Origin: Clostridia bacterium
GTDB lineage: Bacteria; Bacillota; Clostridia; Christensenellales; Aristaeellaceae
Direction of reading: 5' to 3'
DNA: 41,162 nt
NCBI GenBank assembly: GCA_016295665.1
Contig: JAEDKS010000001.1
Location: 1-41,162, forward strand
How positions within the stretch are numbered: the first letter of the stretch is position 1; every line of letters starts with the position of its first letter. The notes beneath the pieces were generated by a model that saw nothing but the letters and a program-made list of their open reading frames with translations, was not told the DNA's origin and searched no databases. Both the position numbers and the translations under genes were made by a program. Positions 433 through 34,361 of the stretch are shown one piece after another.

Positions 433-630
433 ATGCAGATCGAGCTTCTGTTTCGGATCGCCGGGGTTGGCGTGCTGACCTGGGTGGTGTGCGCCGTGCT
501 GCGGCAGGCGGGCCGCGACGAGCTGTCCACCCTGGCGGCGGTGGCGGGGGTTGCCATCGCGCTGCTGATGGTGGTGGACATCATCTCGCAGCTCTTTGGC
601 AGCGTGCAGACCATCTTTCAACTCTACTGA
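433..630 (+). CDS. spoIIIAC: Stage III sporulation protein AC (65 aa, two TM segments)
   Basis: Sequence MQIELLFRIAGVGVLTWVV...QTIFQLY has the size and pattern typical of SpoIIIAC. Its position in the operon also fits. Confidence 0.85.
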   Translation: MQIELLFRIAGVGVLTWVVCAVLRQAGRDELSTLAAVAGVAIALLMVVDIISQLFGSVQTIFQLY

Positions 631-644
631 CGCGAGGTGCGGCG

Positions 645-1031
645 ATGAACGCTTTGAAGCTGGCGGGCTTCGCGGTGGGGGCGGCACTCATCCTGCTGCT
701 GCTGCGCCGCCTGAAGCCGGAGGTGGCGACGGTGGCGGCGGTGGCGGCGGGGTGCATGCTGCTGCTCATGGCGCTGCCCGGGGTGCGGGAGATCATGACC
801 GGGCTGGTAACCCTGTCGGAGAAGGGCGGCGTGCAGGACGGGTACCTGATGCAGCTGCTGAAGGTGACGGGCATCAGCCTGCTCATGGACTTCGCCTCCC
901 AGACCTGCCGGGATGCCGGGGAGGAAGGACTGGCGATGAAAACGGAGCTGGCGGGGCGGGTGATGCTGCTGACGCTGGCGCTGCCCGCCATGGAGACGCT
1001 GCTGCGGCAGATGATGGAGCTGTCGCCATGA
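645..1031 (+). CDS. spoIIIAD: Stage III sporulation protein AD (128 aa membrane protein)
   Basis: Uses the internal ATG at 645 of ORF 33..1031. The upstream part of that ORF overlaps spoIIIAB/AC in another frame. The product is hydrophobic, SpoIIIAD-like, and in the canonical position. Confidence 0.8.
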   Translation: MNALKLAGFAVGAALILLLLRRLKPEVATVAAVAAGCMLLLMALPGVREIMTGLVTLSEKGGVQDGYLMQLLKVTGISLLMDFASQTCRDAGEEGLAMKTELAGRVMLLTLALPAMETLLRQMMELSP

Positions 1032-2170
1032 GGCGCCTGACGGCCCTGGCCCTGCTGCTGGCGGCGCTGCTCGTACCGGTGTCGGGGGCCTGCGGGGAGG
1101 TCACGCTGAGCGACGCGCTGGATCAGGTCATCGATGGTCTGGATACCGCCGCGCTGGAGGAGGCGCTGCAGTCCGCCGACCCCTTCGCGGCGACGGGCGG
1201 CTTCCGGGAGACGCTGCGGAAAATCGCGCGGGGTGAGCTGACGCTCTCCTTCGATGACATGATGCGGCTTCTTCTGAACCGCTTCGCCTCCGCGTGGACG
1301 GGCAGCCTGTGGCGGATCACCCGGCTGTGCGCGCCGGCGGTCATCTGGAGCATTCTCAGAAGGCTGTCCGGCAGGAGCGCGGAGGCGGGGCAGGTGGTGT
1401 GCAGCCTGCTGGTGTGCGTGTTCCTCTCGCAGGACCTGAGCGAGCACAGCAGCCTGTGCCTGACGACCATGGATCGGATGAGCAGCGGGATGCAGGGCCT
1501 TTTTCCGCTGCTGCTGACGATGATGGCGGCGGTGGGCGGCTCGGCGGGCTCGGCGCTGCTGCAGCCGGCGGTGGTCACGGCGGCAAGCTCCATGACGGGA
1601 CTGATCCGGCACGTCACCGTCCCGCTCACGGCGGGGGCGGCGGTGCTGACCATGCTGTGCTATCTGGGCGACGGCGTGCGGGTGACCCGGCTGGCGAAGC
1701 TGCTGCGGCAGCTGGCGAGCTGGTCGCTGGGGGTCTGCTTCACGGTGTTCATCGGCGTGCTGGCGACCCGGGGCGTGACGGCGGCGGCGGTGGACGGCGT
1801 AACCATCCGCACCGCGAAGTACGCCATGGACAACCTGATTCCTGTGGTGGGCGGGCTCTTTGCGGACACGGTGGACGCGCTCATCGGCAGCGGCATGCTG
1901 GTGCAGAGCGCTCTGGGGGTCACGGGGCTGCTGCGGATCGTCTCCTGGTGCATCGGCCCCAGGGGTCAGACGCTGGCGGCGGCGGTGCTCTACAAGCTGA
2001 CCGCCGCCGTGATGCAGCCCGTGTCCGACGGCCCGCTGGCGGACTGCATCCACGAGTTTTCCGAGCTGCTCATGCTGCTTTTCATCATCCAGCTGTGCGC
2101 CGCGGCGATGTTTCTCATGCTCATCGCGCAGCTGATTGCGGTGAGCGGCATGACGATGATGCTGAGGTGA
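1028..2170 (+). CDS. spoIIIAE: Stage III sporulation protein AE (380 aa polytopic membrane protein with signal peptide)
   Basis: ATG at 1028 overlaps the spoIIIAD stop (ATGA). Signal-like N-terminus MRRLTALALLLAALL is followed by multiple TM segments. Position in the operon fits. Confidence 0.85.
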   Translation: MRRLTALALLLAALLVPVSGACGEVTLSDALDQVIDGLDTAALEEALQSADPFAATGGFRETLRKIARGELTLSFDDMMRLLLNRFASAWTGSLWRITRLCAPAVIWSILRRLSGRSAEAGQVVCSLLVCVFLSQDLSEHSSLCLTTMDRMSSGMQGLFPLLLTMMAAVGGSAGSALLQPAVVTAASSMTGLIRHVTVPLTAGAAVLTMLCYLGDGVRVTRLAKLLRQLASWSLGVCFTVFIGVLATRGVTAAAVDGVTIRTAKYAMDNLIPVVGGLFADTVDALIGSGMLVQSALGVTGLLRIVSWCIGPRGQTLAAAVLYKLTAAVMQPVSDGPLADCIHEFSELLMLLFIIQLCAAAMFLMLIAQLIAVSGMTMMLR

Positions 2171-2175
2171 TAAAA

Positions 2176-2448
2176 ATGGAGCTGCTCTGGCGGTTTTCGG
2201 CGCTGTCCATGTGCTGCTGCGCGGTGCTGACCCTGCTGCGGGAGGGGACGCTGCGAAGGACGGCGGTGTTTGTGGTGGGGGTGCTGCTGGTGAGCCTGTG
2301 GGTGGACGGCGTGGGGGCGCTGCTGCCGTCCCTGCGTCTGGACGCGGGGGAGGCGCCGGAGACGGTGCTGACGGAGGTGCGCTTCGTCCCCTCCGATTCG
2401 GCGGAGGAGGTCTATGCAAGACGTGCGGAGGGGGAGAGCCTGCCATGA
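2176..2448 (+). CDS. spoIIIAF: Stage III sporulation protein AF-position ORF (90 aa, unusually short)
   Basis: ATG at 2176 lies 6 nt after the spoIIIAE stop. It has two hydrophobic segments. The call rests mainly on position between AE and AG. Confidence 0.55.
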   Translation: MELLWRFSALSMCCCAVLTLLREGTLRRTAVFVVGVLLVSLWVDGVGALLPSLRLDAGEAPETVLTEVRFVPSDSAEEVYARRAEGESLP

Positions 2449-2795
2449 GCAAGCTGATGGAGCGCCTGCGGCGGGACGGCTGGATCTTCGCGCTCATCGG
2501 GCTGTGCGTGCTGCTGTGCCTGACGCTGGGCAGCGGCGGCACCGGGGAGGCGCAGAGCAGCGCCACACCGCTGGAGGCGCAGCTGTCCCGGGTGCTGTCC
2601 GCCATGGAGGGCGCGGGACGGGTGGAAGTGGCGGTGTCCTTCCAGGATGAGGACGGGACGGTGCCCTGCGGCGCGGTGGTGGTGGCGGACGGGGCGGGGG
2701 ACGTTTCCGTGCAGCTCCGGCTGACCCGCGCTGTCATGACGCTGCTGGAATTGGACGCGGACGAGATCAGTATTTTTCAGCGCAAGGAGGAATAG
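2445..2795 (+). CDS. spoIIIAG: Stage III sporulation protein AG-like (116 aa; TM plus short ring-building-motif-like domain)
   Basis: ATG at 2445 overlaps the AF stop. One TM is followed by LSRVLSAMEGAGRVEVAVSF...GAVVVADGAGDVSVQLRLTRAVMTLLELDADEISIF, which resembles the SpoIIIAG C-terminal motif. Confidence 0.65.
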   Translation: MSKLMERLRRDGWIFALIGLCVLLCLTLGSGGTGEAQSSATPLEAQLSRVLSAMEGAGRVEVAVSFQDEDGTVPCGAVVVADGAGDVSVQLRLTRAVMTLLELDADEISIFQRKEE

Positions 2796-2797
2796 CG

Positions 2798-3310
2798 ATG
2801 CTCACATGGTTCATGAAGTACCGGAACCTGCTGCTGCTGGGGCTGCTGGTGGTGATGCTGGCGGTGTCGTCGCAGCTGAACACGAGCCGCATCTCGGAGG
2901 AATCCACGGCGGTCGCCCTGCCGGTGACCTACAGCGGCAGCGCCGCGCAGCAGACGCCCATGGAGGTCTACCGCCAGCAGCGGGACGAAACGGCGCTGCA
3001 GGACATGGCGGCGCTGCAGGCGCTGGTGGATGCGTCGGAGGTGGACGAACAGACCCGGGAGGATGCCGCCCTTCGTCTGCAAACGCTGGTCTCGCAGCGG
3101 GAGCAGCAGTCCGCCCTGGAGGGCGCGCTGCTGGAGAGCGGGCTGTGGCCCTGCGTGGCGGTGGTGACCCCCGGCAGCGTGACCGTGGTCACGGGCCGGG
3201 AGAGCCTGAGCGAGGAGGAGCGCACCCTGCTGCTGACCATGGTGCAGGCGCACACGGAGGTGGATGCAGGAGGCGTGCGGATCGTCTGCGGATATTCGGG
3301 AGAAAAATGA
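2798..3310 (+). CDS. spoIIIAH: Stage III sporulation protein AH (170 aa)
   Basis: N-terminal TM, a Q/E-rich linker, and a C-terminal VAVVTPGSVTVVTGRESLSEEERTLLLTMVQ domain typical of SpoIIIAH. It is the last gene of the spoIIIA order. Confidence 0.75.
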   Translation: MLTWFMKYRNLLLLGLLVVMLAVSSQLNTSRISEESTAVALPVTYSGSAAQQTPMEVYRQQRDETALQDMAALQALVDASEVDEQTREDAALRLQTLVSQREQQSALEGALLESGLWPCVAVVTPGSVTVVTGRESLSEEERTLLLTMVQAHTEVDAGGVRIVCGYSGEK

Positions 3311-3320
3311 AGAAAGGGGG

Positions 3321-3348
3321 TTTGCAACGCGGGAAAACGTGGTATAAT
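3321..3348 (+). promoter_or_regulatory. Sigma-A-type promoter (TTTGCA, 16 nt, TGgTATAAT extended -10)
   Basis: TTTGCA at 3321..3326 and TATAAT at 3343..3348, preceded by TG at 3340-3341. It lies about 50 nt upstream of the RseC-like start. Confidence 0.5.
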
Positions 3349-3396
3349 AGAAGTGGGAAAATGCCCGCTCGGGCAGGACAGAAGGAGGCGTACAGC

Positions 3397-3834
3397 ATGG
3401 AACGGATAGGTGAGGTTACGGCGGTGCGCGGCGAGTGTGTGGAGATCACATTCTGCCGTCCGACGGACTGCGGCAAGTGCCATGCGTGCCAGGGGGCGAG
3501 GGACAGGATGCAGGTGACGGTGAAGGGGACGGCGGAGGTTGGCGACTTCGCCGTGGTGGACATGCCCTCCGCCACGGTCATGAAGGCCTCCCTGCTGGCG
3601 TATGTGCTGCCCCTGGGCGGCCTGCTGGCGGGTGTCGCGGCGGGCACGCTGCTCTTTCCCGCGCAGGAGGCGGTCGCCGGCATCGTCGGCGGCGCACTGG
3701 GTCTGGCGGTGACGCTGGGCGCTGTCGCCCTGACGGAGAAGAAGCGCCGGAATGACCCGCAGTGGCGTCCGCAGCTCCTGCGCGTGATCCCCAAGGCGGA
3801 GTGCCCCGCGGCCACGGCTTCCACCGGGCTGTGA
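3397..3834 (+). CDS. RseC/MucC-family (SoxR-reducing-system-type) membrane protein
   Basis: ATG at 3397 is preceded by GAAGGAGG at 3381..3388. N-terminal GECVEITFCRPTDCGKCHAC Cys cluster is followed by two TM helices, which is the RseC-family layout. Confidence 0.7.
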   Translation: MERIGEVTAVRGECVEITFCRPTDCGKCHACQGARDRMQVTVKGTAEVGDFAVVDMPSATVMKASLLAYVLPLGGLLAGVAAGTLLFPAQEAVAGIVGGALGLAVTLGAVALTEKKRRNDPQWRPQLLRVIPKAECPAATASTGL

Positions 3835-4258: not shown

Positions 4259-4287
4259 TTGACAAGCGGAACGCGCCGTGCTACAAT
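4259..4287 (+). promoter_or_regulatory. Consensus sigma-A promoter for the aspS leader (TTGACA, 17 nt, TACAAT)
   Basis: TTGACA at 4259..4264, a 17-nt spacer, and TACAAT at 4282..4287. A T-tract lies just upstream. Confidence 0.7.
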
Positions 4288-4293
4288 AGCGTC

Positions 4294-4618
4294 AATTTCA
4301 CAGGAGCGCAAGCTCCGCAAAGGCTGTGAAAAGCAGCAGTAGCCGGAAACCAGCCAGGCAGAGAGCCGCGTGAAGGTGCGAGTGCGGCAGGTGAGGAACG
4401 GTGAAGAAACAGCTTGGAGCCGCCGCCCGAACGCCCTTCCGAAGGAAGCGGTCAGTAGGCACGGACGGGTGAAGCCCGTAACAGCTTCGGGCAATCGGAC
4501 GATTCCGAAAGCGGAAAGGTCCCGTTGCTGATGAGATAAGTCTGAAGAAGGCTTAATTTGGGTGGTACCGCGAAGACAGGCGTCCTTCGTCCCATGACAG
4601 GGAGGAAGGACGCTTTTT
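4294..4618 (+). promoter_or_regulatory. T-box riboswitch leader (tRNA-sensing), putative Asn (AAC) specifier
   Basis: Stem I elements: K-turn GGC-UGUGAA-AAGC with GCUU-GGA-GCC, AGUA at 4338..4341, AG bulge CAGAGAG, and distal loop GGUGCGA. The specifier loop 3' strand GAAGA-AAC-A is at 4403..4411. The T-box sequence AATTTGGGTGGTACCGCG is at 4555..4572. A terminator follows. Confidence 0.85.
4580..4618 (+). terminator. Intrinsic terminator of the aspS T-box leader
   Basis: GCGTCCTTC at 4580..4588 pairs with GAAGGACGC at 4605..4613 and is followed by TTTTT at 4614..4618. Its 5' side overlaps the antiterminator/T-box region. Confidence 0.8.
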
Positions 4619-4652
4619 CATGGAAACAGCCATGGAGCAAGGAGGAATCAGG

Positions 4653-6728
4653 ATGAAGCGGACGCATTATTGCGGACAGATTCGCAGGGAGCATATGGGG
4701 CAGACGGCCACGCTGTGCGGCTGGGTGCAGACCAAGCGCGACATGGGCGGCGTCATCTTCCTGGACGTGAAGGACCGGGAGGGCATCGCGCAGGTGGTGT
4801 GTGACCTGTCCTACCTGCCGGAGGAGGACTTCCACCGGGCGGAGAGCGTGCACATGCAGAGCGTGGTGCAGGTGACGGGCGAAATCCGCCACCGGGACGA
4901 GAGCACCTACAACCCGCGCCTGCTCACGGGCGAGGTGGAGCTGAAGGCCACGGCGCTGGAGGTGCTGAGCGAGGCGAAGCCCCTGCCCTATGCGCTGGAT
5001 GAGGACGCGAAGGTGCGCGAGGAGCTGCGGCTGAAGTACCGCTACCTCGACCTGCGCCGCCCCGCCATGCAGAACGCGCTGCGCTTCCGCCACAAGGTGC
5101 AGCTGGCGACGGAGCATTTCCTGGACGCGGAGGGCTTCTGTCAGGTGGAGACGCCCATGCTGTGCAAATCCACCCCCGAGGGCGCCCGCGACTATCTGGT
5201 GCCCAGCCGCGTGCATCCGGGCACCTTCTACGCCCTGCCCCAGAGCCCGCAGATTTTCAAGCAGCTGCTGATGGTGGGCGGGCTGGACCGGTACTATCAG
5301 GTCGCCCGCTGCTTCCGCGACGAGGATCTCCGCGCCGACCGTCAGCCGGAGTTCACGCAGGTGGACATGGAGATGTCCTTCGTGGATCAGGAGGACATCC
5401 TGCAGCACCTGGAAAAGCTGTTCAAGACCGTGTTCCATGAGGTGATGGGCAGGACGGTGGACTACACCTTCCCGCGCCTGACCTGGCAGGAGTCCATGGA
5501 CTGGTACGGCTGCGACAAGCCCGACCTGCGCTTTGGCATGCGCATCCGCGACGTGACGGAGCTGGCCTCCCGCTGTACCTTCTCGGTGTTCCGCAAGGTG
5601 GCGGATCAGGGCGGCAAGGTGCGGGCGCTGAACTGCAAGGGCTGCGGCGACAAATTCACCCGTACCACCATCGAAACGCTGACCGACCATGCCGTCTCCT
5701 ACGGGGCCAAGGGCATGGCGTGGATTCTGATTCACGAGAGCGGCGAGGTCAACTCCATTCTGCAGAAGTACTTCACCAGGGCCCAGTGGCAGGAGCTGCT
5801 GGATGCGCTGGACGCTGAGAACGGCGACTTCATCCTGTTCTGCGCGGACAAGTTTGAGGTGGTGTGCCGGACGCTGTGCGGTCTGCGTCTGGAGGTGGGC
5901 GACATGCTGGGCCTGCGCCCCAGGGATGATTATCAGTTCTGCTTCGTGACCGACTTCCCGGAGTTCGAGTGGAGCGAGGACGAGCAGCGCTGGGTGGCGA
6001 CCCACCATCCCTTTACCATGCCCTACGAGGAGGACATGCAGTACCTCTTTACCGACCCGGGCCGGGTTCGCTCCCAGGCCTACGACGTGGTGCTCAACGG
6101 CACCGAGCTGGGCAGCGGCTCCATCCGAATCCACCGCGCCGATGTGCAGGCGACCATGTTCCGGGCCCTGGGCTTCACCGAGGAGTCGGCGCGGCAGCGC
6201 TTCGGCTTCCTGATCGACGCCTTCCAGTACGGCACCCCGCCCCATGGTGGCTTTGCCTTCGGTCTGGATCGCTTCGTGATGCTGCTGCTGGGCGCGGACA
6301 GCCTGCGCGATGTCATCGCGTTCCCGAAGGTGCGCGACGCCTCCTGCCTGATGACCGGCGCGCCGGACTTCGTGGACGCGGAGCAGCTGGAGGTGCTGAA
6401 GCTGGGCGTGGCGGCGGGCGCCGACGAGACGAAGCGCCCGAAGCGCAAGCCCACCATGGCGGTTCGTCAGGTGGCGGAGCTGGCAAAGCTGGCCCTGAGC
6501 CCCGAGGAGGAGGAGCGGATGGGCGGCGAGCTGTCCACCATCCTCCAGTTTGCCGAGACGCTGCAGGGCGTGGACACCACGGATGTGCCCATGACCGCGC
6601 ATGTGATCCCCACCGAGAACGTGTTCCGCGAGGATGTCCCCGAGGCGCCCTTCGACCGTGCCCTGCTGCTGCAGAACGCGGCCACCGCCACGGAGACCTG
6701 CCCCACGGTGCCCAAGACCTTTGAATGA
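4653..6728 (+). CDS. aspS: Aspartate-tRNA ligase with an in-frame C-terminal GatC domain (AspRS-GatC fusion, 691 aa)
   Basis: Start MKRTHYCG at 4653 has GGAGG 7 nt upstream. Class II AspRS motifs are present (FYALPQSPQ, RCFRDEDLRADRQPEFTQVD, GGFAFGLDR). After ...EQLEVLKLGV a basic linker runs without a stop into MAVRQVAELAKLALSPEEEERMGGELSTILQFAETLQGVDTTDV...NVFREDV..., which is GatC-like. Confidence 0.85.
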   Translation: MKRTHYCGQIRREHMGQTATLCGWVQTKRDMGGVIFLDVKDREGIAQVVCDLSYLPEEDFHRAESVHMQSVVQVTGEIRHRDESTYNPRLLTGEVELKATALEVLSEAKPLPYALDEDAKVREELRLKYRYLDLRRPAMQNALRFRHKVQLATEHFLDAEGFCQVETPMLCKSTPEGARDYLVPSRVHPGTFYALPQSPQIFKQLLMVGGLDRYYQVARCFRDEDLRADRQPEFTQVDMEMSFVDQEDILQHLEKLFKTVFHEVMGRTVDYTFPRLTWQESMDWYGCDKPDLRFGMRIRDVTELASRCTFSVFRKVADQGGKVRALNCKGCGDKFTRTTIETLTDHAVSYGAKGMAWILIHESGEVNSILQKYFTRAQWQELLDALDAENGDFILFCADKFEVVCRTLCGLRLEVGDMLGLRPRDDYQFCFVTDFPEFEWSEDEQRWVATHHPFTMPYEEDMQYLFTDPGRVRSQAYDVVLNGTELGSGSIRIHRADVQATMFRALGFTEESARQRFGFLIDAFQYGTPPHGGFAFGLDRFVMLLLGADSLRDVIAFPKVRDASCLMTGAPDFVDAEQLEVLKLGVAAGADETKRPKRKPTMAVRQVAELAKLALSPEEEERMGGELSTILQFAETLQGVDTTDVPMTAHVIPTENVFREDVPEAPFDRALLLQNAATATETCPTVPKTFE

Positions 6729-6745: not shown

Positions 6746-8209
6746 ATGAAGGAAATCACCAGCATGACCCTGACCGAGCTGTCGGAGGCGCTGCGCCGGG
6801 GCGAAGTGACCTCCCGTGAGGCCACCGAGGCCTATCTGGATCGCGTGGAGCGGGTGGAGCCGAAGGTGGGCGCCTATCTGACCGTGTGCCGGGAGGAGGC
6901 CCTGCGTCAGGCCGATGAGGCCGACGCGCTCCGCCGCAGCGGGCAGAAGGTGCACCCGCTCTGCGGTGTGCCCGTGGCGGTCAAGGACAACATCTGCACC
7001 CGGGGCATCCGGACGACCTGCGCCTCCAAAATGCTGGAGGACTTTGTGCCGCCCTATGACGCCTGCGCGTGGGAGAAGCTGCGGAGCGCCGGCTGCGTGC
7101 TGCTGGGCAAGACGAACCTGGATGAGTTCGCCATGGGCTCCACCACCGAGAACAGCGCGTTCCACGTCACGCACAACCCCTGGGGCCTGGATCGGGTGCC
7201 CGGCGGCTCCTCCGGCGGCAGCGCGGCCTGTGTCGCGGCGCGGGAGGCGCCCTTCTCCCTGGGCAGCGATACCGGCGGCTCCATCCGTCAGCCTGCGGCC
7301 TTCTGCGGCGTGGTGGGCATGAAGCCCACCTACGGCATGGTGAGCCGCTACGGACTGGTGGCCTTCGCCTCCTCCCTGGATCAGATCGGCCCCATGACCC
7401 ATACGGTGGAGGATAACGCCCTGGCGCTGGATGTCATCTGCGGCTATGACCGCCGGGACACCACCTCCGTCAAGCGCGGCTACACGCCCATGAACCGCCA
7501 GCTGAAGGACGGCGTGAAGGGCCTCAAAATCGGCCTGCCCCGGGAGATGTTTGCCGAGGGCCTGTCCGCGGAGGTGCGCGAGGCCGTGACCGGTGCCGCG
7601 AAGGCGCTGGAGAAGCAGGGCGCCATCATCCGGGAGGTCAGCATTCCCTCGCTGGAATACGCGCTGCCCGCCTACTATGTGCTGTCGAGCGCGGAGGCGT
7701 CCTCCAATCTGGCCCGCTTTGACGGCGTGCGCTACGGTCACCGGGCCGCAGAGTATGCCGATCTGGAGGAGCTGTATGTCAAGAGCCGCTCCGAGGGCTT
7801 CGGCGCGGAGGTGAAGCGCCGCATCCTGCTGGGCACCTACACCCTTTCTGCCGGCTACTTTGACGCCTACTACAAGAAGGCGCTGCAGGTGCGGACGCTG
7901 GTCATCCGGGACTTCGAGCGGGTGCTGCACGACTGCGACTGCCTGCTGGGCCCGGTGGCCCCCACCACGGCCTACAAGCTGGGGGAAAAGACCATGAGCC
8001 CCCTGGAAATGTATCTGGGCGACATCCATACGGTGCCGGTGAACATCGCGGGCATTCCCGCGCTGTCCATGCCCTGCGGGCTGGATCGGGCCGGGCTACC
8101 GGTGGGGCTTCAGCTGATGGGCGCCACCTTCTCCGAGCCGCTTCTGTACCGTGTGGGCTATGCGCTGGAGAAGGCGCTGGGTGAGGTCGTGAAGGAGGTG
8201 TCGCTGTAA
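6746..8209 (+). CDS. gatA: Asp/Glu-tRNA amidotransferase subunit A
   Basis: Amidase signature GGSSGGSAA, about 487 aa, and GAGGAGG 9 nt upstream of the ATG at 6746. Confidence 0.93.
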   Translation: MKEITSMTLTELSEALRRGEVTSREATEAYLDRVERVEPKVGAYLTVCREEALRQADEADALRRSGQKVHPLCGVPVAVKDNICTRGIRTTCASKMLEDFVPPYDACAWEKLRSAGCVLLGKTNLDEFAMGSTTENSAFHVTHNPWGLDRVPGGSSGGSAACVAAREAPFSLGSDTGGSIRQPAAFCGVVGMKPTYGMVSRYGLVAFASSLDQIGPMTHTVEDNALALDVICGYDRRDTTSVKRGYTPMNRQLKDGVKGLKIGLPREMFAEGLSAEVREAVTGAAKALEKQGAIIREVSIPSLEYALPAYYVLSSAEASSNLARFDGVRYGHRAAEYADLEELYVKSRSEGFGAEVKRRILLGTYTLSAGYFDAYYKKALQVRTLVIRDFERVLHDCDCLLGPVAPTTAYKLGEKTMSPLEMYLGDIHTVPVNIAGIPALSMPCGLDRAGLPVGLQLMGATFSEPLLYRVGYALEKALGEVVKEVSL

Positions 8210-9645
8210 TGGCGGAATGGCGTATGTTGGACGGGTACGAGATGGTCATCGGCCTGGAGGTACACGTCGAGCTGAAAACGAAAACCAAAATCTTCTGCTC
8301 CTGTCCCACCACCTTCGGTGCGGAGCCAAACACCCAGTGCTGCCCGGTGTGCATGGGCTTCCCGGGCACGCTGCCGGTGCTCAACGCCGAGGTGGTGCAC
8401 TACGCGGTGAAGGCCGGTCTCGCCACCGGCTGCACCATCAGCAAGTACAGCAAGCAGGATCGCAAGAACTACTTCTATCCCGACCTGCCCAAGGCCTATC
8501 AGATCAGCCAGTATGACCTGCCCCTGTGTCTGGCGGGCCACCTGACCATCGAGACCCCCAAGGGTAGCAAGGACATCGGCATCACCCGCATCCACATCGA
8601 GGAGGACGCGGGCAAGCTGGTGCACGACCCGGAGAAGGGCACGCTGATTGACTGCAACCGCTGCGGCGTACCGCTGATTGAGATCGTGTCCGAGCCGGAT
8701 ATCCGCACGCCCCAGGAGGCGGTGGCCTATCTGCAGAAGCTGAAGGCCGTCATCGCCTACACGGGCGTCAGCGACTGCAAGATGAACGAGGGCAGCCTGC
8801 GCTGCGACGTGAACCTGTCCATCCACAAGCCCGGCGAGCCCTTCGGCACCCGCACCGAGATGAAGAACCTGAACAGCTTCCAGAGCGTGCAGCGCGCCAT
8901 CGAGGAGGAGTACCGCCGTCAGGTGGAGGCCCTGCGCAAGGGCGAGACCATCGAGCAGGAGACCCGCCGCTTTGACCAGACCACCGGCAAGACCAGCTCC
9001 ATGCGCCGCAAGGAGAATGCCAACGACTACCGCTACTTCCCGGATCCTGACCTGGCGCCCATCGTGCTGCCGGAAGCAACGGTGAGGGCGTGGCGGGACG
9101 AGCTGCCGGTGCTGCCCGACGCCCGCAAGGCCGCGTACATGGAGCAGTATGGGCTGACCAGCTATGCCGCCGAGCAGCTGGTGAGCGAGAAGGCCTTCGC
9201 CGAGTACTTCGAGCAGGCGGCCCAGTCCACCCGTGCGCCTCGCACGCTGGCGAACCTGATGATCACCGAGGTGTTCCGTCTGCTGGAGGGCGAGAGCACC
9301 GCCATCCGCATCGCTCCGGCGCATCTGGCGCAGATTGCCACCATGCAGGAGGAGGGCGTCATCAACAGCGGCGCCGCGAAGAAGGCCGTCGCGGCCCTCT
9401 GGGAGCAGGACGAGGATCCCGTGGCCTACGTGGAGCGCAACGGGCTGCGTCAGCTCAATGACCCCGAGGCGCTGCGCAACGCGGTGCGTCAGGCCATCGC
9501 GGAGAACCCCGCCATGGTGGAGGGCTACCGCAAGGGCAAGCTGCCGCTGAAGAAGGCGCTGATGGGCGCCGCCATGCGGCTGACCGGCGGCATGGCGAAC
9601 CCCGTGCTGCTCCAGCAGCTGGTGGACGAGGAGCTGGACGGCTGA
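8209..9645 (+). CDS. gatB: Asp/Glu-tRNA amidotransferase subunit B
   Basis: Typical GatB sequence IGLEVHVELKTKTKIFCSC...NTQCCPVCMGFPGTLPVLN. TAATG overlaps the gatA stop, and GAAGGAGG is at 8191..8198. Confidence 0.93.
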   Translation: MAEWRMLDGYEMVIGLEVHVELKTKTKIFCSCPTTFGAEPNTQCCPVCMGFPGTLPVLNAEVVHYAVKAGLATGCTISKYSKQDRKNYFYPDLPKAYQISQYDLPLCLAGHLTIETPKGSKDIGITRIHIEEDAGKLVHDPEKGTLIDCNRCGVPLIEIVSEPDIRTPQEAVAYLQKLKAVIAYTGVSDCKMNEGSLRCDVNLSIHKPGEPFGTRTEMKNLNSFQSVQRAIEEEYRRQVEALRKGETIEQETRRFDQTTGKTSSMRRKENANDYRYFPDPDLAPIVLPEATVRAWRDELPVLPDARKAAYMEQYGLTSYAAEQLVSEKAFAEYFEQAAQSTRAPRTLANLMITEVFRLLEGESTAIRIAPAHLAQIATMQEEGVINSGAAKKAVAALWEQDEDPVAYVERNGLRQLNDPEALRNAVRQAIAENPAMVEGYRKGKLPLKKALMGAAMRLTGGMANPVLLQQLVDEELDG

Positions 9646-16601: not shown

Positions 16602-16862
16602 ATGGAAAGAGGCGTTTTTCCCAGAGAGGTCACCACGGACACGCCGCGCATCACCGTCACGGGGCGGGAGCAGGTGCGCGTGGAGCAGCACGGCGGACTG
16701 ACCTCCTTCTCCCCGGAGGAGATCGTGCTGCGCACTGCGGGCGGTGCCATCGCCATTCAGGGGGAGGCGCTGCGGTTCAGTGCCTATTCCGCGGCGGAGG
16801 CGGTGATTCTGGGGCACATCAGCCGGATCACCCTGCGCGAGGGAAGCGGTGGTGAGCGGTGA
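16602..16862 (+). CDS. yqfC: Sporulation protein YqfC (YabP family)
   Basis: 86 aa with YabP-like pattern ITVTGREQVRVEQHGGLTSFSPEEIVLRT..GAIAIQGEAL. It is followed by yqfD and phoH, as in B. subtilis. Confidence 0.8.
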   Translation: MERGVFPREVTTDTPRITVTGREQVRVEQHGGLTSFSPEEIVLRTAGGAIAIQGEALRFSAYSAAEAVILGHISRITLREGSGGER

Positions 16863-18010
16863 GGGAATGGCTGGTGGACTTCACGGCGGAGGGGCTGAAT
16901 TTGGAACGGCTTATCCGTCAGGCGGCGGAGGAGGGCGTGCTGCTCCGAAGGCTGCGGCGGCAGGGCCGACGGCTGACCGCCTGTGTGCCGGAGAAGCAGC
17001 TGGGCATCGTGTCCTCGCTGTGCGAGCGGGGCGGCTGGCGCTTTGTCCCCGGCAGGCGGCACGGGGCAGGACGGCTGCTGGAGATGCTGGAGCGCAGATG
17101 GCTGGCGGGCGTGACGCTGCTGCTGGTCTCCGTGGCGGTCGTGGCGGGCTCCATGATGATGTGGCGGGTGGAGATTGTCGACGGCGGCAGCTATGAGGCC
17201 GACCTGCGGATGTACCTGGACGTGCTGGAGGTCACGCCGGTGCGCTGGAAGCAGTCGGTGGATACCGCCTGGCTCCGGGACACGCTGGAGTGGCGCTACC
17301 CCGAGGTGGCGTGGATTGAGGTGGGCTGGCGCGGCATGACCCTGTGCATCACCCTGCACGAGGGACAGCCCATGGGGGAGACGGTCAGTCTGGCGGGCTG
17401 CTGCGACGTGGTCGCCAGCCGGGATGGCATCATCGAGCAGATCATCACCCTGGCGGGCACCCCGCAGGTGCAGGTGGGGGAGCTGGTGAAGGCGGGCGAT
17501 GTGCTGATACGGGGCGAGGAGCGCGGCGCGCAGGAGACGGTGCGCCCGGTGGCGGCCCGGGGAACGGTGCTGGCGCGGGTGTGGGACGGCGCGGCGGTCA
17601 GCGTGCCCACAACGGAGACCCGCACCGTCTATACCGGACGGGAGCAGGAGCGCGTCAGCGTGCTGACCCCCTGGTTCCCCATGTGGCCCGACCCGGGCTC
17701 GGACTTCGCGCAGCAGGACGAGAGCATCCGGGAGGTGCCCCTGGGCGGCCTGTTCCTGCCGGTGACCATCCGCTACACCCGCTGCATGGAGGCGGAGATT
17801 ACCCTCGTCCAGCGTGACCCGGAGGCGGTCAGGGCGGAGGCAGGGGTCGCGGCGCTGCGAAAACTGAGGGAAAAAATCGGTGTGCGCGACAAACTGATTG
17901 ACAAATGGGTAGAATATAGTATGATAAAGGATGGAGAACTGCAGGCTGTCGCCTATGGCGAGCGCTGCATCGACATCGGTGTGCGCCGGGAGCTTTCCCC
18001 GCAGCAGTGA
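16859..18010 (+). CDS. yqfD: Sporulation protein YqfD
   Basis: The GTG start overlaps the yqfC stop. It is about 383 aa with a single central TM, and its position and size match YqfD. Confidence 0.75.
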   Translation: MREWLVDFTAEGLNLERLIRQAAEEGVLLRRLRRQGRRLTACVPEKQLGIVSSLCERGGWRFVPGRRHGAGRLLEMLERRWLAGVTLLLVSVAVVAGSMMMWRVEIVDGGSYEADLRMYLDVLEVTPVRWKQSVDTAWLRDTLEWRYPEVAWIEVGWRGMTLCITLHEGQPMGETVSLAGCCDVVASRDGIIEQIITLAGTPQVQVGELVKAGDVLIRGEERGAQETVRPVAARGTVLARVWDGAAVSVPTTETRTVYTGREQERVSVLTPWFPMWPDPGSDFAQQDESIREVPLGGLFLPVTIRYTRCMEAEITLVQRDPEAVRAEAGVAALRKLREKIGVRDKLIDKWVEYSMIKDGELQAVAYGERCIDIGVRRELSPQQ

Positions 18011-19035: not shown

Positions 19036-21468
19036 ATGAAGCGGCGTAAGCTGGAAAGGAAGAACAAGGCAAAGTCACGGAAGCTGGGGAGCCTGGTGGC
19101 GTGGCTGCATACGGAGAAGGCGAAGGCTGCGCTGGTGATGGCGGTGGGCAGCATGCTGCTGATGGTGCTGCTGTGCGCGGCCTGCGCGCCGCAGCGCTAC
19201 AGCCTGGAGGTGGGCAGCATCTCCCACCAGACCATCACCGCCACCAAGGACGTGGTGGATGAGCTGGCGACGGAATCGCGCCGCAGCGCGGCGGAGAACA
19301 GCGTCGAGCTGACCTATCACCCCCTGGAGGGCGTGACCGAGCAGGTCATGGCGGATCTGACGGCGGTGTTTGACGAGCTGCGCAAGGTGCAGCAGTATGG
19401 TCTGACCCTGCGCTCCGACAAGGACACAGCGGAGACTATCCGCAACCGCAACTTCACCGAGAGCGAGCTGGAGTACGCCCAGAGCCTGGTGACGCTGCTC
19501 AAGCTGAGCAACTATCAGTACACCACCCTGCTGCGGACGGAGACGGCGGACTATGATACCATGGCCTCCACTGTGACCATCGCCGTGGAGAACCAGATGA
19601 ACAACAGCATCCGCGAGGGACAGGTGACCCAGGCCATCGAGACCATCAAGCAGATCGTGGCCTATCGCGTGGACATCTCCCTGATGCAGAACATCGTGCC
19701 CACGGTGCTGAAGCTGTGTGTCAAGGCCAACATGGGCATCGACCAGACCGCCGCCGAGGAGGCCCGCCTGCGGGCCCGCGAAGCGGTGGAGCCCGTGGTG
19801 TACCTGCAGGGCCAGAACATCGTCCGGGAGGGCGAGGTGGTCAGCGCCAATCAGATTGCCATGCTGAAAAGCCTGGGTCTGCTGGAGAGCGCGGAGTACG
19901 ACTACGCGCTCTACGGCGGCGTGCTGCTGCTGGTGCTGCTGGCGGTTTCGCTGCTGATTCTTCTGCTGGGGCTTCTGGACAGGCATCAGCTGCAGACCAT
20001 CCGCTCCACCATGGTCATCATGCTGGTGATGGTGGTCAGCGTGGGGCTGTGCATCTGCGTGTACAAGCTGCTGAATCCCTACCTCATGCCCCTGCCTCTG
20101 GCTGCCATGCTGCTGACGGGTCTGCTGGGCTGGCGGGCGGGACTGCCCGCAGCCATCAGCCTGTCCATGCTGGTGGGCAGCCTGGCGGCGGGCGGTGCCA
20201 CCACCACCTCTGCGGAGATGGTGCAGCTGATGCTCTGCGGCCTGGTGTCCGGCGTGGTGGCGGTGCGCTACCTGAAGGGCAAATCGCAGCGCGTGCGGAT
20301 GATCCTCTGCGGCGTGCTCACGGCGGTTACGAATCTGGCGGTGCTGGTGGGCATGGCGCTGATGACCTCCATCGACCTGAGCCGGATTCTGCAGACTGCC
20401 GCCTGGAGCGCGGGCGGGTCGCTGCTCAGCGGCGTGCTGGCGCTGGGCCTTCAGCCGGTCTTTGAGACGGCCTTCAACCTGGCGACCCCCAGCAAGCTGC
20501 TGGAGCTGGGCAATCCCAACCAGCCCCTGCTGAGGCGGCTGCAGATCGAGGCGTCGGGCACCTATCATCACTCCATCATCGTGGCGAACCTGGCGGAGGC
20601 GGCGGCGGAGCGCATCCATGCCAACCCGCTGCTGGCCCGCACCGGTGCCTACTTCCACGACATCGGCAAGCTGAAGCGTCCCCTGTACTTCAAGGAGAAC
20701 CAGATGGGGGAGAATCCCCATGACACCACCGACCCCTATGTGTCGGCAGCCATCGTGACCACCCATACCCGCGACGGCCTGCTGCTGGCGCAGAAGTACC
20801 ACCTGCCGCCGGAAATTCAGGACATCATCGTCGAGCATCACGGCGACACGCCGGTCATGTACTTCTATCACAAGGCGCTGCAGCAGTCCAACGGTAAGCC
20901 GGTGAACATCGACGATTTCCGCTATGACGGGCGCCGCCCCACCACCCGGGAATCCGCCATCATCATGCTGGCGGACACGGTGGAGGCCGCCGTGCGCTCC
21001 ATGCCCAACCACACGCCCCAGGGCATTGAGGACTTCATGGTGAAGCTGGTGCGGGGCAAGCTGGAGGACGATCAGCTGAGCGACGCGCCGCTGACCCTGC
21101 GGGACATTGACGGCATCTGCAAGGCGTTCTGCAGCGTGCTGAACGGCGTGTTCCACGAGCGCATCGAGTACCCGACCACAGCCGTGCCGACCAGAGGCCA
21201 GTCCGCTGCCCCGGCACAGCCTGCTGCTACCGAACCCGAGAAGCCAGCGGCATCTCCCGCGCCCGTGCAACCCGCACCGCAACCCGCAGCGCCTGCGCCC
21301 GTGCAGCCCGCACCGGCGGCACCTGTGGCTCCGGCTGCTCCGGCCCCTGCGGCGGACAAGACCGTGGAGAAGCCGGACATGCCTGTGGCGTCCGGGCCGG
21401 AGAACGCGGCAGGGGCGGAGACATCGCCCCAGGAGGAAGCAAAAGATGATACTGCTGTGGGAAATTGA
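19036..21468 (+). CDS. pgpH: 7TM-HD (HDIG) membrane phosphohydrolase, PgpH/YqfF-type cyclic-di-AMP phosphodiesterase, with Pro/Ala-rich C-terminal tail
   Basis: Extracellular N-domain, seven TM segments, then an HD domain (HHSIIVANLAE...YFHDIGK...IVEHHG). It is syntenic with B. subtilis yqfF. The alternative GTG start is at 19027. Confidence 0.88.
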   Translation: MKRRKLERKNKAKSRKLGSLVAWLHTEKAKAALVMAVGSMLLMVLLCAACAPQRYSLEVGSISHQTITATKDVVDELATESRRSAAENSVELTYHPLEGVTEQVMADLTAVFDELRKVQQYGLTLRSDKDTAETIRNRNFTESELEYAQSLVTLLKLSNYQYTTLLRTETADYDTMASTVTIAVENQMNNSIREGQVTQAIETIKQIVAYRVDISLMQNIVPTVLKLCVKANMGIDQTAAEEARLRAREAVEPVVYLQGQNIVREGEVVSANQIAMLKSLGLLESAEYDYALYGGVLLLVLLAVSLLILLLGLLDRHQLQTIRSTMVIMLVMVVSVGLCICVYKLLNPYLMPLPLAAMLLTGLLGWRAGLPAAISLSMLVGSLAAGGATTTSAEMVQLMLCGLVSGVVAVRYLKGKSQRVRMILCGVLTAVTNLAVLVGMALMTSIDLSRILQTAAWSAGGSLLSGVLALGLQPVFETAFNLATPSKLLELGNPNQPLLRRLQIEASGTYHHSIIVANLAEAAAERIHANPLLARTGAYFHDIGKLKRPLYFKENQMGENPHDTTDPYVSAAIVTTHTRDGLLLAQKYHLPPEIQDIIVEHHGDTPVMYFYHKALQQSNGKPVNIDDFRYDGRRPTTRESAIIMLADTVEAAVRSMPNHTPQGIEDFMVKLVRGKLEDDQLSDAPLTLRDIDGICKAFCSVLNGVFHERIEYPTTAVPTRGQSAAPAQPAATEPEKPAASPAPVQPAPQPAAPAPVQPAPAAPVAPAAPAPAADKTVEKPDMPVASGPENAAGAETSPQEEAKDDTAVGN
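21259..21315 (+). repeat. In-frame direct repeat inside the pgpH tail (GCGCCCGTGCARCCCGCACCG twice, 36 nt apart)
   Basis: The copy at 21259..21279 and the copy at 21295..21315 differ at one base. They encode APVQPAP twice within a P/A-rich low-complexity tail. Confidence 0.7.
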
Positions 21469-22339
21469 CACCCCCGTCGATCCGGCGCTGACCACGCTGA
21501 TGCAGACGGCGGCGGACTGTGCGCTGTGGGCGGAGGGCGTCTCGCGCCGGTGCGCCGTGTCGGTGCGGCTTTGCGACGACGAGGCCATTCATCAGATCAA
21601 CCGGACGTTCCGGCAGGTGGATCGTGCGACGGACGTGCTGTCCTTCCCGATGGTCACCTACCCTTCGGGCGTCACGGCGGGCAGGGCCGACCGGCTGCTC
21701 CGGCAGGCCTATGATGACGACGTGGACGCCTGTATGCTGGGCGACCTGGTGCTATCGGTGCCGCATATCTACCGGCAGGCGGAGGAGTACGGTCACTCTC
21801 CGCGCCGGGAGGCCGCCTATCTGCTGGTGCATGGTCTGTGCCACCTGATGGGCTACGACCACATGGAGGACGAGGAAAGAAAGGAGATGCGCGCCATGGA
21901 AGAAAAGATTCTGTCAGCTGTGGGCATGAGCCGTGAGGAGCAGGGGAGCGTTTCGGACGAGGCGCTGCTGGCCCTGGCCCGTGCCGCGATGGAGCGCAGC
22001 TATTCGCCCTACTCCCACTTTGCGGTGGGGGCCGCGCTGCTCTGCGAGGACGGGCGCGTGTTTCAGGGCTGCAATATCGAGAACGCCGCCTTCAGCATGA
22101 CCAACTGTGCCGAGCGCACGGCGGTGTTCAAGGCGGTCAGCGAGGGGGAGACCGCCTTCACGACCATTGCCATCGCCGCCTCCGGTGCCGCCCCCTGGCC
22201 CTGCGGCGCCTGCCGTCAGGTGCTGCATGAGTTCGCGCCGGACATCCGGGTGCTGGTCACCTGGGACGGACAGGTAGCGGAGGCCATGCTGAAGGAGCTG
22301 CTGCCCAACGGCTTCGGCCCCAGGGAACTGATGAAGTGA
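21446..22339 (+). CDS. ybeY: Fusion protein: rRNA maturation endoribonuclease YbeY (N-terminal) plus cytidine deaminase (C-terminal)
   Basis: Residues ~1-155 carry the YbeY motif HGLCHLMGYDH. Residues ~170-297 carry CDA motifs NCAERTA and PCGACRQ. It is a single open frame of 297 aa, and it overlaps the pgpH end by 23 nt. Confidence 0.85.
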   Translation: MILLWEIDTPVDPALTTLMQTAADCALWAEGVSRRCAVSVRLCDDEAIHQINRTFRQVDRATDVLSFPMVTYPSGVTAGRADRLLRQAYDDDVDACMLGDLVLSVPHIYRQAEEYGHSPRREAAYLLVHGLCHLMGYDHMEDEERKEMRAMEEKILSAVGMSREEQGSVSDEALLALARAAMERSYSPYSHFAVGAALLCEDGRVFQGCNIENAAFSMTNCAERTAVFKAVSEGETAFTTIAIAASGAAPWPCGACRQVLHEFAPDIRVLVTWDGQVAEAMLKELLPNGFGPRELMK

Positions 22340-31972: not shown

Positions 31973-31989
31973 ACCTTGCGATGATGCTG

Positions 31990-33324
31990 TTAGTCCGCCA
32001 GCGTGCCCATGGGATCCCAGGGTGCCAACTCGATGGCCTCCTGGTCGATCAGGCTGACCGCGTCGCCCAGGTACTCCTTTTCCACGGCGGCCTGGAACAC
32101 ATACTGGTCAAACCAGCTGTCGGAGCAGACATAGTAGCCCTTCCGACCGCTCTTTTCGCCCCAGGAGTTCTCGATCTTCCAGCGATTGGGCTTGCCGTCC
32201 ACCAGATTCACGCCGGTGATGACCATGGCGTGGTTCATGGCGGCGAAGGAGTAGTCGAGGCTGTCCGCCTTGGTCAGGGTCACATCCAGCCCGGAGAGCA
32301 GCTCGGCGTTGAAGCAGCCGTCATCCCAGATGCCGTTGGGACGGTCGCCCCACTTGCCCACGTCGCTGCCGAACCAGACCACCTTGCCGGCCTTCAGCTG
32401 CGCGATGATGGCGGCCTTGAACTCGTCCATGGTCAGGTTCAGGTGGCGCACCTGCCGTCCGCCGACCACGTTGCCCAGCAGCTTGATGGTGTACACCTTG
32501 CCGTAGGGCTTGTCGGCGGTGGGCGCGTTGATGATGCTGACAATCTGATCCAGCAGGTCGCCCACGTACTTCTGGCAGAAGCTCTGGGGCGTCATGTCCT
32601 GCTCCAGGAAGTACGCCTTGTCCTTGGTCACATACTCGAAGTCGAACTTCCTGGGCGGCTCGCCATAGCAGGAGCACAGGAAGCCGTACAGCTTGCCCAG
32701 CATGGCGTCCTTCTCCGCCTTGATCTCCTCGGCGCTGGCGCCATCCTTCACCATGCGGCGCAGTTTGGCAGCGCCCGCCTTGGTGCTGCGGTTGAGCAGA
32801 TGGTTCATGTCGCGGGTATGGCTGGCCTGATAGGTGTCGTCATACACATCCTTCGGCACCACGCCGTACTTCGCCACGATGTTGGCGAACATGTCCCACT
32901 GACCGCCGTCGTGAATGCCGGTCTGCAGAATGAACTGCACCTCGCGGCTGTCCACGGGCTGATCGGCGGTCTGCAGAATGCTCTCGAAGAAGTAGTTGCA
33001 GCGCTCGAACTTGTCCCAGAAGGCCAGGTAGCTCTGGCTCAGCTCGAAGTTTTCCAGGTTCAGGCGCTTGGCGATGCGCTCGCGGAGCACGTTGGTGGCG
33101 GCGAACAGCCAGCAGCGACCGCTGGACTGCTGGTCGGTCACATCCAGGCTCTCCAGGGTGATGGAGAACTTCATGCGCATGGCGTTGGCGCCCCGGGCGA
33201 TGTACATCACATCGTTGAGGGGTGTTTTGGAGAGGGCCATCGTCGCCAGCTGGCGGCTGGGATCGGACTGATAGGCCTCGGACCAGGCGTTCAGCTGCGC
33301 CTGAGTTACGGGAGTCTGCTGCAT
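31990..33324 (-). CDS. pepC: Aminopeptidase C (bleomycin hydrolase-type C1 cysteine peptidase)
   Basis: 444 aa. Catalytic Cys context QQSSGRCWLFAATN, with C-terminal MNHAMVITG and WKIENSWG blocks. The start at 33324 has AAGGAAGG upstream. The rest of ORF 31990..34455 is a spurious extension. Confidence 0.9.
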   Translation of the reverse strand: MQQTPVTQAQLNAWSEAYQSDPSRQLATMALSKTPLNDVMYIARGANAMRMKFSITLESLDVTDQQSSGRCWLFAATNVLRERIAKRLNLENFELSQSYLAFWDKFERCNYFFESILQTADQPVDSREVQFILQTGIHDGGQWDMFANIVAKYGVVPKDVYDDTYQASHTRDMNHLLNRSTKAGAAKLRRMVKDGASAEEIKAEKDAMLGKLYGFLCSCYGEPPRKFDFEYVTKDKAYFLEQDMTPQSFCQKYVGDLLDQIVSIINAPTADKPYGKVYTIKLLGNVVGGRQVRHLNLTMDEFKAAIIAQLKAGKVVWFGSDVGKWGDRPNGIWDDGCFNAELLSGLDVTLTKADSLDYSFAAMNHAMVITGVNLVDGKPNRWKIENSWGEKSGRKGYYVCSDSWFDQYVFQAAVEKEYLGDAVSLIDQEAIELAPWDPMGTLAD

Positions 33325-33382
33325 GGAAAAGACCTTCCTTTCCGGCTTGCTGCCGTTCATCCTTGATGGTACGGATGGTATC

Positions 33383-33411
33383 ATTTTACCGCGCATGGAG
33401 GAGAATGTCAA
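33383..33411 (-). promoter_or_regulatory. Sigma-A promoter for pepC (TTGACA, 17 nt, TAAAAT on the minus strand)
   Basis: The minus strand reads TTGACA-ttctcctccatgcgcgg-TAAAAT, about 60 nt upstream of the pepC start. Confidence 0.6.
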
Positions 33412-33504
33412 ATCGCGGATTGTTTTTTTGCCGTATTCCCATCCCAAAGGCGGCGGGCTGTGGTATGATGGTGGTATCCCCACGAAGGAGAAAGGTGAAA
33501 AGCG

Positions 33505-34305
33505 ATGAACAAGGTCTATGGTTGTTTTCCCGGCGGGCGTCACAAGGCGCTGACGCTCAGCTATGACGACGGCAAGCAGCAGGACAGGCGCCTGCTGTCG
33601 ATCTTCAACCAGCACGGCATCAAGGCCACCTTCCACATCAACAGCGGCCTCTATGAGGATCCGCGCCGCATTCAGCCGGAGGAGTTTCCCGCGCTGTATG
33701 CGGGCCATGAGGTGGCCTGCCACACGGTGACGCATCCGACCATCGCCCGGTGTCCGCTGCCGGAGGTGGCGCGGGAGGTGCTGGATGACCGTCAGGCGCT
33801 GGAGCGCGTCATGGGCTATCCCGTGCGCGGCCTGAGCTACCCCAACGGCTCCCTGTCGGAGGAGATCAAGCGCCTGCTGCCCGCCTGCGGCATCCGCTAC
33901 TCCCGGGTGGTGGGCAGCTCGGACAGCTTTGCGCTGCCCACGGACGCCTACGCCTGGCAGGCGACCTGTCACCACAACCATCGCCTGCTGGAGCTGGGCG
34001 AGGAGTTCCTGGGGCTGCACAAGCAGCAGTATCTCTACCTGATGTATGTCTGGGGCCACAGCTACGAGTTCGATGACAAAAACAACTGGGACGTGATGGA
34101 GCGCTTCTGCGCCATGATGGGCGGGCAGGAGGACATCTGGTACTGCACCAACATCGAGTACTGGGACTGCATGGACGCCTACAGCCGCCTGCAGTTCGCG
34201 GAGGACAACAGCTTCGTATTCAATCCGAACGCAGCGGACTGCTGGATTCGCGTGAACGACGGGGCGCCCCAGTGCATCCCGGGCGGAGCGCTGGTCAGGC
34301 TGTAA
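33505..34305 (+). CDS. Polysaccharide deacetylase family protein (NodB/CE4 homology)
   Basis: LTLSYDDG (the TFDDG-type motif) and HTVTHP (the HxxxH metal motif). An extended -10 TGgTATGAT is at 33461..33469 upstream. Confidence 0.8.
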   Translation: MNKVYGCFPGGRHKALTLSYDDGKQQDRRLLSIFNQHGIKATFHINSGLYEDPRRIQPEEFPALYAGHEVACHTVTHPTIARCPLPEVAREVLDDRQALERVMGYPVRGLSYPNGSLSEEIKRLLPACGIRYSRVVGSSDSFALPTDAYAWQATCHHNHRLLELGEEFLGLHKQQYLYLMYVWGHSYEFDDKNNWDVMERFCAMMGGQEDIWYCTNIEYWDCMDAYSRLQFAEDNSFVFNPNAADCWIRVNDGAPQCIPGGALVRL

Positions 34306-34361
34306 GGGCAGCGAAAAGGCGGCGGACACGCACGGAGCGCATCCACCGCCTTTGCTTTGCC

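Follow-up and report, generated by a model that had tools for sequence, protein, structure and literature searches.

How firmly the enzymes of tRNA-dependent asparagine (Asn) synthesis hold together has been debated, with regard both to the stability of the transamidosome and to its weight in vivo: thermophiles have a stable complex, Helicobacter has a dynamic one, and in Pseudomonas it is the tRNA that holds the partners together. For Clostridium acetobutylicum, Saad et al. in 2012 reportedly described an Asn-responsive, T-box-controlled aspS/gatCAB operon for tRNA-dependent Asn synthesis, in which aspS and gatC are separate genes. The same species possesses three AspRS genes plus an additional GatCAB (PMC4206432), and in the known Asn-transamidosomes the partners are separate proteins, joined largely through the tRNA (PMC9499178). 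Physical links have been reported in the form of a laboratory-selected mutation of Mycobacterium smegmatis that fuses gatC to gatA, joining the C-terminus of GatC to GatA and raising mistranslation (PMC7541841), of the GatB-like YqeY domain carried by GlnRS from Deinococcus radiodurans (PMC1865053), of SepCysE, which bridges the transsulfursome (PMC5688128), and of ErdS, which combines AspRS with DUF2156 (PMC9437257). At the database level, the NCBIfam family NF009460/PRK12820 bears the name [quoted passage not shown]. Here we analyze the aspS::gatC locus in a stretch of 41,162 nucleotides from a member of Clostridia (Aristaeellaceae; contig JAEDKS010000001.1, positions 1 to 41,162), referred to as the window, in which the gene for aspartyl-tRNA synthetase (AspRS) runs in frame into the gene for GatC.

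The open reading frame (ORF) 4620..6728 on the forward strand is open throughout, and the aspS frame that it contains does not end with AspRS but continues into GatC, as the original prediction had claimed: a single frame of 691 codons matches both AspRS and GatC models, and the gene is a natural in-frame AspRS-GatC fusion. At the junction ...EVLKLGV is followed by AAGADETKRPKRKPT and then by MAVRQVAELAKLALSPEEEE..., which agrees to the residue with the 15-residue basic linker transcribed earlier, and the distance of 17 nt to gatA (TGA at 6726-6728, ATG at 6746) also proved correct. ATG 4653 is the likely start of the fused gene, because it is preceded by AGGAGG and because most of the closest homologs share the resulting length of 691 aa; an alternative in-frame ATG (4620) lies upstream, where it abuts the leader terminator.

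The N-terminal part of the protein is, judged from its domain content, a complete bacterial-type AspRS. Pfam identifies in it the tRNA_anti-codon (PF01336), tRNA-synt_2 (PF00152, 399 bits) and GAD (PF02938) domains, the last of which is used as a mark of bacterial-type AspRS (PMC4206432). Both aspS equivalog models are matched far above their cut-offs (TIGR00459: 752.7 bits versus 373.85; NF001750: 828.4 bits versus 443), and the part aligns end to end with AspRS chains from PDB (1efw, 4wj3_M and 1c0a). The C-terminal ~90 aa match GatC, as had been proposed: Pfam GatC (PF02686) is found at residues 626-692 of ORF 4620..6728 (E-value 1e-16, or 6e-18 for the 90-aa tail alone), with 61-65 bits against a threshold of 23, and the gatC equivalog TIGR00135 is matched over model positions 5-93 of 93 with 72.4 bits in the fusion and 77.6 bits for the tail alone (cut-off 47.1). 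Moreover, the tail aligns to residues 8-85 of 100 in GatC from Staphylococcus aureus, 7-91 of 94 in that from Aquifex aeolicus and 16-101 of 104 in that from Pseudomonas aeruginosa (sequences from PDB); since it covers nearly the full length of three crystallised GatC chains, it is a whole GatC rather than a fragment. Like free GatC, it would be expected to bind and stabilise the GatA/GatB heterodimer.

The fusion is widespread. Searching a collection of 5.8 billion proteins, we found AspRS domains together with PF02686 in all of the best 120 matches (61-99% identity, mostly 689-699 aa). A cluster at 99% identity comes from more than 100 independent contigs, every copy being 691 aa long, and one related cluster comprises 6218 member sequences. 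Thus the fused frame, which the original prediction had proposed to check in independent assemblies, is intact in each of these contigs and homologs. The named carriers belong to Oscillospiraceae, Aristaeellaceae and metagenome-assembled genomes (MAGs) of Eubacteriales, and include the cultured isolate Ligaoa zhengdingensis, whose ortholog is labelled "Multifunctional fusion protein" in UniProt.

Fused proteins also occur in a second phylum. A search of a representative library with the 170-aa junction, in which the 50%-identity representatives are mostly short fragments, yielded, among others, divergent fused fragments that fit NF009460 best (P0171 and P0172). Their relatives come from MAGs of Deltaproteobacteria, Desulfatiglandales and Thermodesulfobacteriota; many of them are fused and some unfused, and the linkers of the fused Desulfobacterota proteins span roughly 20-45 residues. 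The C-terminal half of the window AspRS shows 54% identity to its counterpart from an unfused Eubacteriales locus and 41-44% to the fused Desulfobacterota proteins. The AspRS parts therefore track taxonomy and not fusion status, which indicates at least two independent fusion events and suggests that the fusion in Clostridia arose independently of that in Desulfobacterota. The same library contained a far more divergent AspRS-GatC junction (P0218, 34% identity) with a motif 3 of the PPHAGMAPGIDR type and a linker of ~25-30 residues, which hints at a third fused lineage. In another entry (P0202) an AspRS C-terminus runs into unrelated sequence that resembles the end of a methyltransferase; the contig may be chimeric or contain a frameshift.

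The fused gene belongs to a four-function operon that consists of a promoter-like site, an Asn-specific T-box leader, aspS::gatC, gatA and gatB, so that according to Pfam and NCBIfam all proteins of the Asn-transamidosome (AspRS, GatC, GatA and GatB) are encoded in it. We compared six further fused loci (L002-L007, 61-79% identity): gatA and then gatB directly follow aspS::gatC in all seven, and the flanking gene sets of the six differ. The absence of a separate gatC between aspS and gatA, noted earlier for the window, extends to these loci, in none of which a free gatC is called. By tblastn the 41-kb window contains no second aspS or gatC; asnS, asnA, asnB and other synthetase genes are missing among the window neighbours, and the window has no tRNA gene.

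The leader bears on the amino acid that the operon serves. Behind the specifier codon AAC (Asn) in its Stem I come the conserved purine A4411 and a GCUU strand that pairs with AAGC. T-box leaders precede the six other fused loci as well (59-120 bits; five at 93-120 and one at 59), and the AAC-A specifier is invariant in all seven, together with the helix-closing strand. From this invariance we conclude that uncharged tRNA-Asn probably switches the operon on and that the operon is probably reserved for the indirect synthesis of Asn-tRNA(Asn). The fold energy of the leader terminator was matched by none of 200 shuffles, and promoter-like sites are enriched in the region (4 found versus 0.5 expected in shuffles). 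The T-box leader had no place in the original prediction and connects the operon with the pathway of tRNA-Asn by an independent route.

In our judgement it is likely that this Asn-T-box operon uses the fused AspRS-GatC to tether a transamidosome for indirect Asn-tRNA(Asn) synthesis, the AspRS being presumably non-discriminating and the assembly and channelling predicted. Uncharged tRNA-Asn would pair with the AAC specifier and stabilise the antiterminator, upon which the whole operon would be transcribed. The AspRS part would then make Asp-tRNA(Asn), and the GatC tail would wrap around the GatA/GatB interface in the way of free GatC. AspRS, a class IIb synthetase, is a dimer in known structures, and for this reason each dimer would carry one GatC tail per subunit and, through these tails, bind two GatA/GatB pairs, giving (AspRS-GatC)2 GatA2 GatB2, which matches the subunit ratio of the P. 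aeruginosa Asn-transamidosome. The covalent tether would fix a 1:1 stoichiometry, keep the amidotransferase beside the source of the mischarged tRNA, help to pass on Asp-tRNA(Asn) and reduce the amount of it that escapes to the ribosome. Such tethering of the transamidosome, which the original prediction proposed, is plausible. We infer mainly from the Asn T-box, which is the best available support, that tRNA-Asn is a substrate of the AspRS part; the anticodon-binding domain scores best against the non-discriminating AspRS of P. aeruginosa in 4WJ3 (109 bits, versus 95 for Escherichia coli), which is weak evidence.

Several points weigh against this reading. His31 and Gly82/83 of P. aeruginosa AspRS (Leu and Lys in E. 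coli) are presumably positions of tRNA-Asn recognition, and the window AspRS has Met and Ser there, which follows neither the P. aeruginosa nor the E. coli pattern. The T-box of the window scores 85 bits, below the Rfam gathering score of 93; for this reason the scan of the window at the gathering threshold returned no match, and the element surfaced at an E-value threshold. Beyond the 41-kb window the genome may carry another aspS, a free-standing gatC, asnS, glnS or a gene for an asparagine synthetase. If GlnRS is lacking, the same GatCAB would also serve Glu-tRNA(Gln), and the tether would then not be specific for Asn. Post-translational cleavage may take place in the linker. Finally, a linker of 15 residues would have to reach from the AspRS C-terminus to the GatC N-terminus in an assembly resembling 4WJ3.

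The alternative that survives best, albeit unlikely, is that the fusion has little functional consequence: the protein would be a general housekeeping AspRS, GatCAB would act mainly on Gln-tRNA(Gln) or on both amide tRNAs, and a flexible linker would be merely tolerated, with no gain in channelling. The AspRS part is indeed canonical (753-828 bits to the aspS equivalogs) and strongly constrained. Relative to the 79%-identical ortholog from locus L004, the non-synonymous divergence (dN) amounts to 0.13 for AspRS, 0.31 for GatC and 0.75 for the linker, the synonymous divergence (dS) being saturated; among 119 aligned C-termini, the mean column identity is 0.82 in the AspRS tail, 0.64 in GatC and 0.38 in the linker. 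The linker sequence, in which A, K, E, S and G are frequent, thus evolves almost freely; it remains in frame in every case at a length of 12-22 aa. About two-thirds of bacteria are without GlnRS and need GatCAB for Gln-tRNA(Gln) (PMC4206432), which would suit a general role. In addition, an unfused aspS in a Eubacteriales MAG lies beside the same rseC-like and thioredoxin genes as the fused operon, a slight indication that the housekeeping copy may have given rise to the fused gene. What speaks against a fusion of no consequence is, on the one hand, the conserved Asn-specific T-box that controls the whole operon and, on the other, the persistence of the fusion throughout a clade in which identities range at least from 61 to 99%, and in a second phylum, which argues for selective retention.

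In a single-chain AlphaFold2 model built from an alignment of 58 fused homologs, the mean predicted local distance difference test (pLDDT) score is 76.8; much of the AspRS part is confident, with low values at residues 167-200 and 221-232, and the score drops below 50 at residues 582-601, which cover the linker. Given this drop and the variation in length and sequence, we judge the linker to be flexible. In the GatC part, two helices (604-610 and 617-639) are predicted with medium confidence and the remainder with low confidence. The model fits a flexible tether followed by a subunit that folds on GatA/GatB. A search of PDB sequences found no chain that holds both an AspRS and a GatC part.

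A disordered linker leads to the next alternative, namely that the genes are fused and the proteins are not: free GatC would be released by internal initiation or by proteolysis of the linker, and the fusion would only couple expression at 1:1. The window protein and 30 other homologs do have Met as the first residue of GatC, two loci (L003 and L004) show weak matches resembling a Shine-Dalgarno (SD) sequence upstream of it (-6 to -7 kcal/mol), and a basic, disordered and exposed linker could be a protease site. However, this Met is replaced by Ile in 86 of the 119 homologs, and its codon is ATT, ATC or ATA in five of the seven fused loci. The earlier remark that no SD sequence precedes the internal ATG at 6456 is supported by a duplex energy of -0.2 kcal/mol, compared with -12.0 at gatA. 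At the same position in the other fused loci the values range from -0.6 to -7.3 kcal/mol, being close to zero in the window and three loci, whereas most true starts and gatA starts reach -10 to -12 kcal/mol. As the Met is mostly Ile in relatives and the SD sequence is lacking, separate GatC is probably not made from an internal start; the GatC encoded here is not a free-standing polypeptide of ~95 aa but part of the AspRS fusion, and lacks a conserved start or SD sequence of its own. Nor does the poorly conserved linker contain a conserved cleavage motif, and coupled translation of separate genes, as in the gatA/gatB overlap, would give the same ratio without any fusion. Altogether we consider the release of free GatC improbable.

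It is very improbable that the GatC-like domain has been co-opted for another role and that the functional GatC is encoded elsewhere in the genome. Our view is limited to 41 kb of that genome, and NCBIfam does list a family of "GatC-like protein" fused to other sequence (NF009461), to which there are weak matches. Yet the domain scores above the cut-off of the GatC equivalog over the full model length, it occupies the usual position of gatC in gatCAB operons, immediately before gatA, and a free gatC is called neither in the six other fused loci nor in the window. As for an assembly or sequencing artefact, in which a stop was lost or an indel arose at the aspS/gatC boundary, it has practically no chance of being correct, for although DNA of 64% G+C has few chance stops and long open frames are common in it, we rejected this explanation as refuted by the conservation of the fused frame (120 of 120 best homologs with in-frame linkers, near-identical 691-aa copies on more than 100 independent contigs, and a cultured isolate) and by a uniform G+C content at third codon positions over the junction (0.91, 1.0 and 0.89).

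If the tethered transamidosome is taken further, one may speculate that in the abundant gut clade of Clostridia the fusion is the only AspRS and at the same time the only GatC, so that every GatCAB would be covalently anchored to an AspRS dimer as a permanent, tRNA-independent transamidosome, and that such a complex originated independently in Clostridia and in Desulfobacterota. We put this combined view forward tentatively and consider it possible but rather doubtful. Were it true, the complex would have to provide Asp-tRNA(Asp) and Asn-tRNA(Asn), as well as Gln-tRNA(Gln) if GlnRS is absent, and the independent fusions would constitute natural evidence of in vivo selection for channelling mischarged Asp-tRNA(Asn). 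Irrespective of this view, a natural and conserved covalent link in two phyla, under the control of a sensor of Asn-tRNA, is evolutionary evidence that AspRS and GatCAB cooperate, and the fused and split versions offer a ready-made system for probing substrate channelling. There is also a practical consequence for annotation. The Clostridia proteins are named only "aspartate--tRNA ligase" by NCBI, and because of this, GatCAB of common gut bacteria may erroneously be rated incomplete in pathway reconstructions that look for gatC.

Table 1. Coordinates of the aspS::gatC operon and its leader within the window.
Feature	Position	Strand	Basis and remarks
Promoter-like TTGACA-17-TACAAT with TG extension	4259..4287	+	11/12 consensus matches; consensus match only
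T-box leader RNA	4317..4597	+	RF00230, 85 bits, E-value 4.6e-19, full model 1-219
Specifier codon AAC (Asn), Stem I specifier loop	4408..4410	+	cmscan alignment at the specifier triplet of the model
Conserved T-box sequence AAUUUGGGUGGUACCGCG, antiterminator side	4555..4572	+	RF00230 alignment
Leader terminator	4578..4618	+	Hairpin 4578-4615, then UUUUU; -28.5 kcal/mol, z = -6.9
SD sequence AGGAGG of aspS::gatC	4640..4645	+	Predicted anti-SD duplex -11.4 kcal/mol
aspS::gatC, fused coding sequence	4653..6728	+	691 codons/aa plus stop; ORF scan, Pfam, NCBIfam, homologs
AspRS part, residues 1-586	4653..6410	+	OB-fold anticodon-binding domain, class II catalytic core, GAD insertion
Linker AAGADETKRPKRKPT, residues 587-601	6411..6455	+	Variable, low pLDDT, high dN
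GatC domain, residues 602-691	6456..6725	+	Pfam GatC, TIGR00135, alignment to PDB GatC chains
gatA, amidase subunit	6746..8209	+	Pfam Amidase, 540 bits; own strong SD sequence GAGAGGAGG, duplex -12.0 kcal/mol
gatB	8209..9645	+	GatB_N 410 bits, GatB_Yqey 118 bits; start overlaps gatA stop

The unfused Eubacteriales locus mentioned above (L001, MAG JAVBPC010000110, positions 567..3817) is a hisS-aspS pair, whose AspRS of 594 aa is 52% identical to that of the window; the T-box match upstream of the pair is weak and partial (40 bits). Downstream of this pair lie the rseC-like and thioredoxin genes, which in the window and in L004 immediately precede the fused operon; this adjacency may be a remnant of shared synteny. 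Elsewhere in the window, regions 596..3310 and 16859..18010 contain the sporulation genes spoIIIAE, a spoIIIAH-like gene and yqfD, owing to which we regard the source as a spore-forming member of Clostridia with 64% G+C. A 297-aa ORF on the forward strand (21446..22339) comprises, in this order, domains of YbeY endoribonuclease (residues 14-158) and cytidine deaminase (170-265), and looks like a second gene fusion, ybeY::cdd; it is located in a yqfD-phoH-7TMR_HD-ybeY-era cluster, with no separate dgkA or cdd gene in between. Two long ORFs, 31981..33363 on the forward strand and 581..2734 on the reverse strand, have no Pfam match and could be spurious in DNA with such a high G+C content; opposite the former, and overlapping with it, runs another long ORF (31990..34455).

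Among the known systems, the Asn-transamidosomes of P. aeruginosa (4WJ3) and Thermus thermophilus (3KFU) share with this locus the four polypeptide functions, a GAD-type AspRS like 4wj3_M and a GatC homologous to 4wj3_C; they differ in that GatC of the window protein is covalently attached to AspRS. The operon of C. acetobutylicum is likewise clostridial and reportedly preceded by an Asn-responsive T-box, the difference being again the fusion of aspS to gatC in the window. The gatC-gatA fusion of M. smegmatis resembles the present case in that GatC functions while covalently joined to a protein of the same pathway, but the fusion described here is natural and conserved, and joins the N-terminus of GatC to AspRS. 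In GlnRS-YqeY, the SepCysE-bridged complex and ErdS an aminoacyl-tRNA synthetase is also linked physically with the enzyme or module that acts next on its aminoacyl-tRNA, albeit with other partners and other chemistry, and GatC is not among them.

The suggestion of the original prediction that this architecture has not been described holds for the literature, insofar as our full-text searches found no paper on an AspRS-GatC fusion, but it does not hold at the database level, where NF009460/PRK12820, the UniProt label and the Desulfobacterota lineage represent it. The window protein has the order of NF009460/PRK12820 (AspRS, linker, GatC) and aligns to model positions 23-690 of 723. It nevertheless reaches only 619.8 bits, with a curated cut-off of 1379, and the generic aspS and gatC models fit it better; because its score is so far under the cut-off, we do not regard it as a member of this equivalog family. 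Thus, the protein represents a known kind, a bifunctional AspRS/GatC that is already catalogued, of which the Clostridia member, to judge from the sequence comparisons, has probably evolved independently.

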